From contig OX597836.1 of the NCBI GenBank assembly GCA_951406725.2, positions 27,218,001-27,282,000 on the forward strand: DNA of 64,000 nt, given 5' to 3'. This DNA is from Octopus vulgaris. Taxonomy: Eukaryota. The stretch's first letter is position 1; each line of letters begins with the position of its first letter. Made by a program: the position numbers and the translations under genes. The notes below the pieces were generated by a model that saw nothing but the letters and a program-made list of their open reading frames with translations, was not told the origin of the DNA and did not search any database. Positions 2,722 to 37,000 of the stretch are shown piece after piece.

Positions 2722-3033
2722 ATACTGTTCTGTATTTAAGAGATGAGGAATTATGTACATTATTTACATTATTTACATTATTTACACTTGACGGATATTT
2801 GTCCACATCTTGTTTGTTGTTAACACAACGTTTCGGCTGGTATACCCTCCAGCCTTCATCAGGTGTCTTAGGGAAATTTCGAACCTGGGTTCTCATTCCT
2901 AAGGTATTTTTCTATATTATCATTATCATTATTATTATCATTATTATTATTATTATTATTATTATTATTATTATTATTCAGGTCACTGCCTGGAATCGAA
3001 CTCGGAATCTTGCACTCTTAACCACTATGCCAT
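2722..3033 (-). mobile_element. tRNA-headed element with an (AAT)n spacer and a hammerhead-containing tail; inverted second head at 3034-3148
   Basis: B-box GAGTTCGATTCC in both heads. Palindromic junction GCCATATGGC (3029-3038). The tail contains CTGATGA...GAAAC. Confidence 0.7.
2822..2867 (-). ncRNA. Minimal type I hammerhead ribozyme-like motif (C3-G8)
   Basis: gacac-CTGATGA-A-GGCTGG(agggtata)CCAGCC-GAAA-CGTT-gtgtt: stem I, 6-bp stem II, palindromic ACGT stem III. Confidence 0.65.
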
Positions 3034-3266
3034 ATGGCGTTGGTGGTTAAGAGCACGTGCTACTAACCCCAAGATTCCGAGTTCGATTCCAGACAGTGAC
3101 CTGAATAATAATAATAATAATAATAATAATAATAATAATAATAATAACGATACAAAGCTTTTCTTTCATAAGCCCCAAATTACTCTAGTGTGATACTGGT
3201 AGCAGCAGCAGTAGCAGCAGTAGCAGTAGTAGTAGTAGTAGTAGTAGTAGTAGTAGTAGTAGTAGC

Positions 3267-3464
3267 TGAAAAATCGATAAACCGATTCCTTATGGGATTT
3301 CCCAATCAAATTGTATGCAACCCATTTTCAGCCAAACATTTACCAATTTTAACAGATTTTGCTCAAATTTGACGTCGGTGTAGCTTAGTTTGGTTTGAAA
3401 AAAAGCTCTTGATTAGCTTAATAATCCTAACTTAATCCTGGGCAACGCCGGGCTATACTGCTAG
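3267..3464 (+). mobile_element. Helitron-like 3' end
   Basis: GC-rich hairpin CCTGGGCAACGCCGGG a few nt upstream of CTAG|T (3461-3465). The 5' boundary is approximate. Confidence 0.55.
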
Positions 3465-3762
3465 TATGTGATACGCAGGACAGGCAAAGAGTTAAACAAC
3501 AACAAGGAAAGATGCATAAAACTAATGTAGTCCTAGATATACTGTGTCTAAAAGACATATGTAATTGTCACGGCCGGAACAGCTTTAACTATTGGCGCAC
3601 TTGATTATGCTGACCGAAGGTTAACCTTTTTGTATCTCTGAAGCATTTTCATATGTTGGTCCTAATCGTCTATTCTTGTTTCCAGACATTTAGTTAGCCT
3701 TTGTTTTATACGTTTTGAGTAATATAAAGCTTTCCTTTCATAAGTCCCAAGTTACTCTGGTG

Positions 3763-4326
3763 CAGGGATTCTCTTTTTTTTTTTGTATCTATGGTCCCCT
3801 TTGATTATTGCTTTATTTTGGTGGACCCCCCCCCCCCCCACCACCACCAACGACCATTCAATGTTTACAAACTAGTTTTATAGAAACCCCTTTCAAAATT
3901 CCTATTTTGCTTTTCACGCATTACCTTGCGTAAGTTGAACTATGTAAAATGTGAGAGAAAGGAACCTAGCTGTTTCTTGCAATACATACCAATACATACA
4001 TCTAAAGCAGGGGTTCTCAACCATTCTTTATCTATGGACCCCTTTGATTACTATTATGGTGGAACCCCATGGCCATTTGATATCTAATAACTAGTTTTAT
4101 AGAAACTGCTTTCAAAATTCCTATTTTGTTTGTCACACATTAACCTGTGTAGGTTGAACTGTGCAAAATGTCAGAGAAAGAAACCTCTTTCTTGCAATGC
4201 ATACCAATACTTAGATCTAAAGCAAAAATTTTTCAGAGTCCTTTAAAATACGATTGGGGATCACCAATTTAGTATTTCATTGCATAGACCCTCAGCGGCT
4301 ATACGGACTCCAGTTGAGAACTCCTC
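3763..4326. mobile_element. hAT/Charlie-type MITE with two internal ~200-240 bp units
   Basis: CAGGGGTTCTCAACC terminal motif. Reverse-complement homolog of 42584-43554. Confidence 0.7.
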
Positions 4327-5833
4327 TTTGCTCTAGAGGATGATAAAATCTTGGGGTGTATATCATATTTAATTCATGGATGCCATGGAAATATTCCTTG
4401 TGCATAACATGTGGTGCACAGGACAGGCAAAGTGTTGATACACACACACATATTCTGTAGCACATATTTGCACTTACGCATGCACATCCACACACACACA
4501 CACACGTGCAGACATACTCTCATTCATGTTCTCATACAAACACACACATATTCAAATACACATCTGCACTTATACACACACACACACACATGTGAACATG
4601 CACACATGCACACTCACACATATGCACACAGACACATGCGTACTCTGACTCATAAGGTACCACAGACTCAGAAATGGTTCCAAGTCTTGTTTCGATGACA
4701 TTATCCAAAGAAACTTTCTCATATTCTATCCAAGCATGGTAAACCTAATTCTTCTCAGGAAGAATTCCAAACACACCCATTAAACTCAAAACACAGTAGT
4801 AGTAGTAGTAGTAGTAGTAGTAGTAGTAGTAGCAGCAGCAGTAGTAGCAGTAGCAGTAGCAGTAGTAGTAGTAAAAGTAGTAGTAGTAGTAGTAGTAGTA
4901 GTAGTAGTAGTAGTAGTAGTAGTAGTTATAATAACGACGATGATGATGATGGTTTCAAATTTTGGCACAAGACCAGCAATTTTGAGAGGAGGGGCAAGGT
5001 ATTTACATCTACCCCAATATTTTTTGTTCCAACGACCCTGGAGTGATGAAAGACAAAGTTGACCCTGGCTGGATTTGAACTCACAATGTAAAGTGCTGGA
5101 ACAAACACTGCAAGGCATTTTCCCATCATTTAAACAATTCTGTCAATTCAACACTCTTAATAATAATAATAATAATAATAATAATAATCGAATCGTGCTC
5201 TTCGTCTTGACTGTTTACCTTTGTGAAGAGTTACATCAATCCTTTTTAAAATAATAATATAATTATAATAATAATCATAATAACGATGATGATAATAATA
5301 AAAATAATAATAATAATGATAATGAATTTGACGGTAGTAACAGACCATTACCCCATTTCCTTCCATTTTTCTAAAAAAAAAAGTGTTTCTTCGGAATTTC
5401 ATTCTAACCATTCCCGGTCCACCCTTCCCATCATGCTTTGTCCAGCCTTCCCATCATGCTCTACCCACTTCAACCAATGGTAATGTCGCCAACTCCCCTC
5501 TTTCCCTAGCTAACCTCACCAAAACAACAAGTGATATGGTCTGGAGTTAATGGTTGTGAATTGAGAGAAAAAAAAAAACTAAATGGTTTTGTTATCTGAA
5601 GAATTTGTTTCACTGTTTTTACCTTCAAGAATAAACCACTGCGGATATCTTCATCACTGAATCTGTGTTAGTTTCTCATTACACACACATACACGTGCAA
5701 ATAGATAGATTGATGCATAGATATAAGTATATATATATATATATATATATATATATATATATATATTATATTTCAATATGTGACCTCATGAGTACCGCTG
5801 GCGATTTTTTTCCTCTGTCTTCCCTTCTCCTAT

Positions 5834-5868
5834 GTTTCCGACGAAGAGCTCCGCTCGAAACGTTAAAC
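5834..5868 (+). ncRNA. Minimal hammerhead-like motif (C3-G8, U4 to C variant) in a repeat embedded in (TA)n
   Basis: gttt-CCGACGA-A-GAGC(tcc)GCTC-GAAA-CGTT-aaac. Confidence 0.5.
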
Positions 5869-34941: not shown

Positions 34942-35652
34942 ATATAATCCATGCAGTTATGTGTTAATCCTTTTTATGATCAACAACTAATGACAAATTT
35001 CTATAATGTAAAATTGATTACTATTTTGGCCCACTTTAACACCACCTCCCGGCTCGTGGGTGTCTTTGGCAGAATTCACTCTGTTGCAAGCATTTAAACC
35101 AGGCTCCCAACAGGGGTCATTGTAGTGGTGTGTCAAGATCCTTTCATAATTCCTTACGTGGCAAAAGAATGAAAGTAAACTTGCTACAGAAATGTTTCCT
35201 CCACTTTTCTAACATTCACAGATTCCAATCCAATAAATGTCCAACCACAAGGACTGCACGTCCTATTCCTGTCCTGACAATTTATGGAAGCATGCCAATA
35301 TCAGAAGGTCATCATCCAGTCGGGCATCTTGCCGAAACCATAGCAACCCTTCCACACCAAATGTCCCGATCGAATGATGAGGCATAAACGTCTGCCTTGG
35401 CTTTTAGTCACATTGGTCTTTCATTAGCTGAAGCACCTCATCTGTGTACACCATGACAACAGATGGCAGCAGCAGTTTCCTTATCGAACTGAATGATCCT
35501 GGCCATTGACAGTTTGTTTGTTCATCTGCTCAGCACCGAGTGATATTTGCTGTTGATTCAATAAGATTCATTTGCCAAAAGATTTCACATCCACCACGCT
35601 TCATTCCACGATTTCAACATAATTCTGGCTCAGGTGATTACATGCAATTTAA

Positions 35653-35872
35653 CCCTTTCGTTACTGCATCGATTTTGAGATGCTCTGTGTGTCTTTCAAT
35701 TATTTAAAATATAACAAAGAATTTAGTAAAATAACTTGGTTATCATTCAGCTAGTGTTAGGAACATAAATTGTGACTAAGGTTTGGTGGAAGATTCTAAT
35801 TCAGAACTTATGAAAACAAGACATTTGTACTGAGAGCCACAGCCGGTTTCAGCCGGGTTGGTATCAAAAGGG
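35653..35872. mobile_element. piggyBac-type MITE family A
   Basis: TTAA on both sides (35649-52 and 35873-76), with CCCTTT...AAAGGG ends. An empty-site paralog lies at ~37610-37765. Confidence 0.9.
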
Positions 35873-36056
35873 TTAACCCATGACTAGGACCCTGACGGGT
35901 GCTATTACTCCAGGCCAGAATAGACCTGGGAACAACAGTGGCTAAGGGGTTGTTTTGTTTCATATTCCTCAAGACCCTGGAACTCCCAAACCGGAATCCC
36001 ACTCCCAGATGCAGCTTAAAGTCACAGCCAAGACAAGAACATCCAAAGATACTTAC

Positions 36057-36165
36057 CACCAATGCCTATAACGTAGATGTTCTCCCCTTGTCCCTCTTCA
36101 ACCCGGGCCTTGATTATCTCAGCAAGGGAATCATACTCTTCACTGGTTGGACTCACAAGAGCCAT
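36057..36165 (-). CDS. GTPBP1: GTPBP1 coding exon 2 ([14 protein letters not shown]...[10 protein letters not shown])
   Basis: Acceptor ttag|ATG, donor G|GTAAGT, 109 nt. Matches the GTPBP1 LVSPTSEQYDSL...GETIYVIG segment. Not in the ORF track; translated by hand. Confidence 0.92.
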
Positions 36166-36330
36166 CTAATGGAAAGAGACAGATAACAAGAGAGGCAATC
36201 ATTGAGAGGAACAGAAATTTACATGTATACATTGTTACCATGACAACAACTTGTAACACATCATGTGGCTGTGGTAATTCAGCTTAACTTAGATGGTTCA
36301 GAGGAGAATAATGTGAAGTGGATATTTATT

Positions 36331-37000
36331 AGAAAATTACTATTTTTAAATCTCACAAAGAGAGATATTCAGCAACAGTACACGTGACCGATACCGCTGC
36401 TGACGACTGAGAACTCGTTAGCCGTTGACCACCGCCGCCTTGTGCCTGACACACGGAAACACACACTCGTGCTCGATATTGCCGCCGTAGCTTGGTTTAG
36501 GACGAATGTTGCAGTAATTTAGCCCCAGGAGACATCATCTCCAGCTGGCTATACGACATGATCTGTGTCCTTATATTTTTGAATAAGGGAATCTAGCACC
36601 CCCACTCAGCTCAAAACAATATCTGTGTATTGCGATTTTTGGGTTAATTCTCTTCATCAGCACAGAATAATTATTTGGCTAGAGGTGGCGCTGCCAAATT
36701 CCCATCTGAAATATATAGTTTTCAAAGTGACAACCAGTCACTGATCTATGAATTAGAAAATTACTATTTTTAAATCTCACAACGTGAGATATTCTGTGCT
36801 GATGAAGAGAAATAACCTGGAAATCGCGATACACAGCTATTGTTTTGAGCTGAGTGGGGGTGCTAGGTTCCCTTGTTCGAAAATATAAGGACACAGATCG
36901 TGTTGTATAGCCAGCTGGAGACGATGTCTCCTGGGGCTAAATTACAGCGACATTCGTCCTAAACCAGGACTGCCACGTTATGTTGGCAAATAATCTTTAC
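36331..37000. mobile_element. Non-autonomous foldback element with hammerhead-like motifs, copy 2
   Basis: 12-bp TSD tggatatttatt (36319-36330 and 37001-37012). ~180-bp inverted arms at 36491-36669 and 36790-36968. Confidence 0.85.
36794..36836 (+). ncRNA. Minimal hammerhead-like motif (C3-G8)
   Basis: ctgtg-CTGATGA-agagaaataacctg-GAAA-TCGCGA-TA-cacag, with palindromic ATCGCGAT stem III and a weak stem II. Confidence 0.55.

Follow-up and report, generated by a model that had tools for sequence, protein, structure and literature searches.

The question raised by this 64,000-nucleotide stretch of the Octopus vulgaris genome (contig OX597836.1, positions 27,218,001 to 27,282,000; the whole stretch is referred to here as the window) is whether hammerhead-like motifs with variant cores, scattered over several repeats, are genuine hammerhead ribozymes, and what kind of element carries them. 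An initial annotation had placed five motifs of type I layout here, each with a palindromic helix III and complementary nucleotides at core positions 3 and 8. All five sites were found, with the cores and palindromic helices described, and positions 3 and 8 are complementary in each (C-G, C-G, U-A, G-C, and C-G for the motifs labelled F1 to F5, respectively). Comparison of sequences makes it probable that the five are minimal type I hammerheads carried by truncated members of five families, of which three are linked to Penelope-like elements (PLEs), and that the source elements of these families cut RNA weakly, as dimers or with the help of a protein. The established part of this is the anatomy of the motifs, their fixation within families, the 3-8 pairing across families, and their position downstream of remnants of reverse transcriptase (RT) and GIY-YIG endonuclease (EN) sequence. 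The motifs lie as follows:

2822..2867 (-): F1, minimal type I hammerhead with C3(2862)-G8(2857), an inserted A, a 6-bp stem II, helix III ACGU, and a predicted cut after U17 at 2827.
5834..5868 (+): F2, minimal hammerhead with C3(5838)-G8(5843), U4C, helix III ACGU, and a predicted cut after 5864.
23569..23606 (-): F3, hammerhead with U3(23602)-A8(23597), A opposite G/A at 10.1/11.1, helix III ACCGGU, and a predicted cut after 23573; stem II is decayed in this copy.
25535..25585 (-): F4, upstream copy, hammerhead with G3(25578)-C8(25573), a 7-bp stem I, helix III AAUAUU, and a predicted cut after 25542; one stem II pair is lost.
25451..25501 (-): F4, downstream tandem copy, hammerhead with G3(25494)-C8(25489) and a predicted cut after 25458.
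36794..36836 (+): F5, hammerhead with C3(36799)-G8(36804), A opposite G at 10.1/11.1, helix III AUCGCGAU, and a predicted cut after 36831.

The F4 site as a whole, 25451-25585 (-), is thus a tandem of two motifs (84 nt). The palindromic helix III measures 4, 4, 6, 6, and 8 nt in F1 to F5, both in the window copies and in the family majorities, and the triplets at the predicted cuts are GUU in F1 and F2, GUA in F3, UUU in both F4 copies, and AUA in F5. A strict descriptor (stem I of at least 4, stem II of at least 3) matched four places in the window, namely F1, F2, and both F4 copies; 40 dinucleotide shuffles of the window gave a mean of 0.05 strict matches, and 0 with a Watson-Crick 3-8 pair. 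The F3 and F5 copies miss this descriptor because stem II has decayed there, reading GUC/GUC in F3 and GAG/CCU in F5 and starting with an unpaired A opposite G or A. That two of the five window copies fail in this manner is what one would cite for the motifs being chance matches pieced together from repeat-rich sequence, but the shuffle controls, the restoration of the stems in the family majorities, and the PLE context already largely refute that explanation, which we give almost no credence. Rfam returned no gathering-score match in the window or in three loci, and no hammerhead among the best 150 of the 255 E-value matches in the window, so that Rfam is uninformative for minimal forms.

Each motif was used to seed a family search of the 2.8-Gb source genome. 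The searches returned 1275-2231 first-look candidates per motif, which are not copy numbers; 40 per search were scored, and alignments of 20-46 distinct copies per family were made. Each motif belongs to a separate high-copy repeat family, in keeping with the proposal that the five repeats are unrelated. Every core is nearly fixed within its family, and the majority sequences restore the stems and keep both the 3-8 pair and stem I. The 3-bp stem II that is decayed in the window is mostly intact in other F3 copies (GUC/GAC or GUC/GGC in 17 of 25) and reads GGG/CCY in 14 of 28 F5 copies. The core of F1 and F5 matches CUGANGA exactly; F2 (U4C), F3 (U3-A8), and F4 (G3-C8) do not meet it literally, and in F4 all core positions outside the pair are standard. 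An unpaired nucleotide after A9 followed by G10.1-C11.1 is present in F1, F2, and F4. F3 and F5 differ in that the first G-C pair of stem II comes after an A with G or A opposite it, the opposing nucleotide being G in 16/25 and 20/28 copies, respectively. To this we added an unbiased sample of 1 Mb in evenly spaced genome stretches (100 x 10 kb), in which the family profiles matched 7 times for F1, 19 for F2 (relatives included), 2 for F3, 11 for F4, and 0 for F5. The F4 figure suggests a copy number on the order of 10^4 genome-wide, and because F4 alone accounts for 11 profile matches per Mb, censuses based on CUGANGA undercount hammerheads.

The 3-8 pair had been described as covarying. This holds between families; within families each pair is nearly fixed. 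When a descriptor with positions 3, 4, 7, and 8 unconstrained was run over the first 600 kb of the unbiased stretches, 20 of 21 matches were Watson-Crick at 3-8, and a further 400 kb added 5 of 5, for a total of 25/26 in 1 Mb; when the first 600 kb were shuffled ten times, 2 of 13 matches were of this kind. These matches are not independent, seven of them forming one tandem array, and by our own sorting 9 of 10 distinct sequence types are paired. Across 2.0 Mb of examined genome DNA, all nine multi-locus families have a Watson-Crick majority (C-G in 5, U-A in 3, G-C in 1; permutation p = 0.002 for all nine), and 12 of 14 singletons are paired.

The reversed pair of F4 stands apart among these. 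Among 86 copies without indels in the 51-nt frame, G3-C8 occurs 75 times, G3·G8 8 times, A3·C8 3 times, and C3-G8 0 times, and all eight F4 copies of the unbiased set are G3-C8. The rest of the core is strongly conserved, with G5, A6, A9, A13, A14, A15.1, and U16.1 kept in 97-100% of copies and G12 in 92%. One F4-type copy from a divergent subfamily (L357) has A3-U8, a single case that may be due to chance.

The motifs were next placed in the elements that surround them:

2721..3111 (-): F1 element remnant, comprising a PLE 3' part (2721-2921), (AAT)n, a tRNA-like A-box/B-box segment (2977-3043), and an inverted copy of that segment (3043-3111).
5772..6028 (+): F2 element of about 200 nt, flanked by (TA)n tracts; positions 5988-6028 are a short 3' piece in inverted orientation.
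23506..23918 (-): F3 element remnant, the 3' end of an RT+GIY-YIG PLE, terminating in (TA)n.
25373..25604 (-): F4 element remnant, the 3' end, resembling a pseudo-long terminal repeat (pLTR), of a GIY-YIG PLE.
36332..37001 (.): F5 insertion, an inverted arrangement of a head-to-tail unit of about 353 nt, with a second hammerhead at 36609-36677 (-).

The suggestion that these are several Penelope-like or retrozyme-like families with variant cores is supported by the PLE remnants of F1, F3, and F4 and by the F5 unit. PLE coding sequence gave no match inside the window itself. Longer copies elsewhere in the genome, examined for GIY-YIG and RT reading frames, carry PLE coding remnants upstream on the same strand for F1, F3, and F4. 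For F1, the remnants are EN/RT-like, with a same-strand upstream match in 7 of 49 copies (four of them fetched for that reason), and an RT-like piece is 36% identical to a 781-aa RT+GIY-YIG frame (E 1e-10), one of many GIY-YIG frames in the genome; Pfam gave no relevant match for three F1 upstream peptides. For F3, a same-strand PLE match lies upstream in 6 of 29 copies and downstream in 0. The association with (TA)n that had been proposed for the motifs holds for F2, F3, and F4 and fails for F1 and F5, a TA/CA microsatellite following the 3' end in 30/30 copies of F2, 28/30 of F3, 16/30 of F4, 2/30 of F1, and 1/28 of F5. The 781-aa frames themselves belong to a young PLE family with intact frames that are mostly 95-99% identical (L181:3745-6087 and loci L155-L200), and several copies have a U3-A8 hammerhead-like motif downstream.

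For F4, the first PLE proteins tried, those of the 781-aa family, gave no link; the link came from walking upstream through a CA/TA-rich tract, which led to a GIY-YIG frame. Of 30 loci fetched by that frame and surveyed with 1.5 kb of flank each, 12 (the query locus among them) have the F4 motif downstream of the frame and on its strand, at a distance of 0.9-1.45 kb (7 G-C, 4 G·G, 1 A-U), and at the unbiased locus L208 the motif likewise follows a same-strand GIY-YIG frame. All of the F4-linked frames seen are broken. Pfam scored GIY-YIG at E 9e-5, above the cut-off (L334), and RVT_1 weakly at E 0.014 (L352); the linked RT is 24-29% identical to the RT of the 781-aa frame, and among the atlas neighbours of the RT piece HTH_animal and RVT_1 are found in part. 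The EN is preceded by a CX3CxxC linker, as has been described for Neptune/Nematis (PMC8557442). F4 elements frequently show inverted 5' copies as well as an optional 3' tail; since these, together with microsatellite ends, are features of PLE insertions (PMC8557442), we counted them in favour of a PLE. Upstream of F4 (L028, L261-L290) we also observed a CTAAC resembling a branch point, along with a pyrimidine tract that ends in AG, just before an ATG about 15 nt ahead of stem I; by sequence likeness this signal resembles an intron 3' end in the pLTR, and many short copies start near there.

How could cores with different 3-8 pairs serve the same reaction? During hammerhead cleavage, G12 serves as general base and nucleotide 8 supplies the general acid through its 2'-OH; the geometry of the two is maintained by the 3-8 pair, which is formed when the ribozyme is in its active conformation. 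If the same roles apply here, any Watson-Crick 3-8 pair would hold the geometry, and C-G, U-A, and G-C cores could for that reason all have become fixed in separate lineages. In a hammerhead, C3G partly rescues the loss of cleavage caused by G8C (PMC8495972), and in the hammerhead of a PLE (PAc, from Anolis Poseidon) the C3G/G8C double mutant partly restores cleavage, which needs the element protein (PMC11167929). Because minimal PLE hammerheads do not cleave as monomers and cleave weakly as dimers (PMC4209133), and because cleavage by a PLE hammerhead needs protein, we infer that the source elements would cut their precursor RNA weakly, either as dimers paired through the palindromic helix III or helped by an element protein. 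Such cutting would trim tandem or read-through precursor RNA and, in F5, would release unit-length RNA. Transposition probably benefits from cleavage without depending on it, and most likely the copies in the window are no longer active. Four contig sets examined for expression contain family-like sequence, but contigs cannot show cleavage, strand, or RNA ends, and these were not counted as evidence.

Several observations weigh against minimal hammerheads with activity in their source elements. The permutation p is 0.17 for the four families that were not preselected by the initial annotation, and the families share ancestry. Decay of stem II in three of the five motifs of the window counts against strict function, and F3 and F5 are without the G10.1-C11.1 pair. 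Folding, in a model that leaves out core contacts, never gave the double-hammerhead form as the lowest-energy state for any family; the dimer is much better than two monomers for F3 and F5, and close for F1, F2, and an intact F4 copy. The F4 tandem of the window could in principle form a double hammerhead, but it folds at -9.4 kcal/mol in that form against -12.0 as two monomers and a minimum of -22.4, and given this unfavourable energy and the stem II pair lost in both copies, these copies are probably inactive. Eight of the 86 F4 copies have the unpaired G3·G8 combination. They represent about six separate insertions (L340, L342, and L344 differ in 3' flank, L345 has a cut flank, L263 stands by itself, and L262/270/274 form a single duplicated unit), and four have a coding remnant upstream; in a poorly resolved EN-region tree they do not fall in one clade. 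Because G3·G8 recurs in this way, source elements without the 3-8 pair seem to have spread, and G8C alone lowers hammerhead cleavage about 10^5-fold (PMC8495972). Hammerhead mutants of PAc still insert in vitro, and that system showed no RNA ends at the cut site (PMC11167929). Finally, no coding link was found for F2 (1 weak match among 46 copies) or for F5 (0/40 copies); apparent coding matches near F2 were dismissed, as they belong to other families or lie downstream.

The last point bears on where the motifs come from. They might derive from independent non-autonomous retrozyme or short interspersed element (SINE) families that replicate through circular RNA, and not from the pLTRs of PLEs. 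F2 with its unit of about 200 nt and F5 with its period of about 353 nt, both without a coding link, would fit such an origin, as would the tRNA-like segment upstream of the F1 motif. In F5, the head-to-tail order is seen from a junction motif that recurs at about -152 and +201 relative to the hammerhead and from same-strand spacings of 342 and 303 nt; most copies are solitary or inverted, and no locus examined has more than two units on the same strand. However, F1, F3, and F4 run upstream into PLE coding remnants, and we rejected F1 as a tRNA-SINE because its tRNA-like segment lies internally, ARAGORN calling no tRNA in 8/8 loci. For the five motifs together, we consider this origin very improbable. 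A typical non-LTR (long terminal repeat) retrozyme was observed elsewhere, at L201:2307-4513, as a tandem array with a period of about 359 nt, a canonical-looking type I hammerhead per unit, and an inverted arm.

The survey also turned up hammerhead-like families related to F2 that have U at core position 6 in 42 of 44 copies and are very abundant, with 23 copies in the unbiased 1 Mb. Position 7 is any of the four letters in these families and C3-G8 is kept (examples are L029:1020, L247:570, and L323:3733, none of them in the window); a PLE-like match lies upstream in 4 of 43. In the literature examined, A6C was found and A6U was not (PMC7151607). Other hammerhead families have U opposite U at 10.1/11.1 (L186:5806, L194:4740, L218:7050 and 8385), and the L186 type, with U4C, lies about 500 nt behind an RT+GIY-YIG frame.

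The abundance of the U6 families, together with the G3·G8 copies at several independent insertions, is what one would expect if the variant cores, above all F4, were catalytically dead descendants of hammerheads that are kept as folded signals or binding sites for PLE protein, or that simply ride along in the pLTR. Transposition in vitro without need for cleavage (PMC11167929) and the poor cleavage of minimal PLE hammerheads (PMC4209133) point the same way. But a full double swap fixed in a large family, along with pairing in all nine families, is hard to explain without selection on the 3-8 pair, and the 97-100% conservation of F4 core positions (92% for G12) also speaks for function, with the reservation that recent amplification alone gives high identity too. 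We therefore regard dead descendants as an unlikely explanation, though a weightier one than a retrozyme origin.

A bolder version of the hammerhead reading, which we offer tentatively and think less probable than not, is that the reversed G3-C8 pair of F4 belongs to a naturally active hammerhead that has become fixed in a PLE family of the order of 10^4 copies; with the A·G 10.1/11.1 and U6 families, F4 would then show PLE hammerheads exploring far more of the core than descriptors allow. With G3-C8 as the natural state of a family, the evolutionary case for the 3-8 tertiary pair would be complete, this pair being so far represented in nature by C-G and U-A in the literature examined. F4 also bears on the role of hammerheads in PLEs: since paired (G-C) and unpaired (G·G) cores occur within one family and each seems to have been amplified, the need of cleavage for transposition can be tested directly, and if F4 is active, its G3·G8 copies would offer a natural comparison of the on and off states.

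Further features of the window are listed here:

15994..31201 (-): GTPBP1-like host gene, with exon-bearing frames near 30.8-31.1, 28.6-28.8, 26.6-26.8, 19.9-20.1, and 16.3-16.6 kb; 5' exons not located.
11719..11776 (-): further F4 copy, cut at its 5' end, with a G3-C8 core; absent from the initial annotation.
9823..9871 (+): further F4 copy, decayed.
530..577 (-): further F5 copy, partial.

Between its exons at 26.6 kb and 20.1 kb, the GTPBP1-like gene contains the F3 motif and the F4 tandem on the sense strand; both would therefore be present in its pre-mRNA. The introns of this gene are filled with repeats. Tandem arrays occur in the window at 42865-43562, 18656-18912, and 30422-30625, with units of 202 nt and 63 nt. 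A quick check for hammerheads of reversed order noted CUGANGA cores with GAAAC 5' of the core at 59853 (-) and 40379 (-).

How much of this is new? The set of PLE-type minimal hammerheads is real and mostly of a known kind. Lünse, Weinberg, and Breaker (2017) reportedly described dimer-cleaving small PLE hammerheads with a reduced stem III. Full-text literature searches, in the texts as available, found G3-C8 in engineered cases only (e.g. PMC3884650) and not as a natural pair, a provisional result, as the Lünse 2017 set may include G3-C8. C3-G8, U3-A8, and U4C are published natural forms; provisionally, then, the G3-C8 of F4 is the new-looking part.

The closest known system is the minimal hammerhead of metazoan PLEs (Cervera and de la Peña 2014, PMC4209133), which shares the layout, a nucleotide inserted after A9, the G10.1-C11.1 pair seen in F1, F2, and F4, the palindromic helix III, the short stem I, and a common U17, and also the mostly solitary truncated copies, opposite-strand pairs, position 3' of RT/EN, and natural U3-A8 families. 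Unlike the rows of its Fig. S3 as extracted, which have CUGANGA or U3 cores, our families include G3-C8 (F4), U4C (F2), and A opposite G at 10.1/11.1 (F3 and F5). Natural core variants reported by Perreault et al. 2011 comprise U3-A8, U4C, A6C, and U10.1-U11.1 (PMC3088659), and our families resemble them in the U3-A8 covariation and in U4C, which is viroid-borne there; they differ in that the available part of that set has no G3-C8 and that its members mostly have tertiary contacts and are not PLE-borne. F5 resembles non-LTR retrozymes in its non-coding head-to-tail unit of about 350 nt, within their size range of 150-450 nt, in its type I hammerhead, and in presumably being mobilised by PLEs (PMC7229834; bioRxiv 10.64898/2026.07.22.740005), but it is unlike them in being mostly single or inverted, in the small number of same-strand units seen, and in lacking G10.1-C11.1. 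The core of F4, finally, carries the same swap as the PAc C3G/G8C double mutant (PMC11167929), with the difference that what was a laboratory mutant there is the natural state of the family here.

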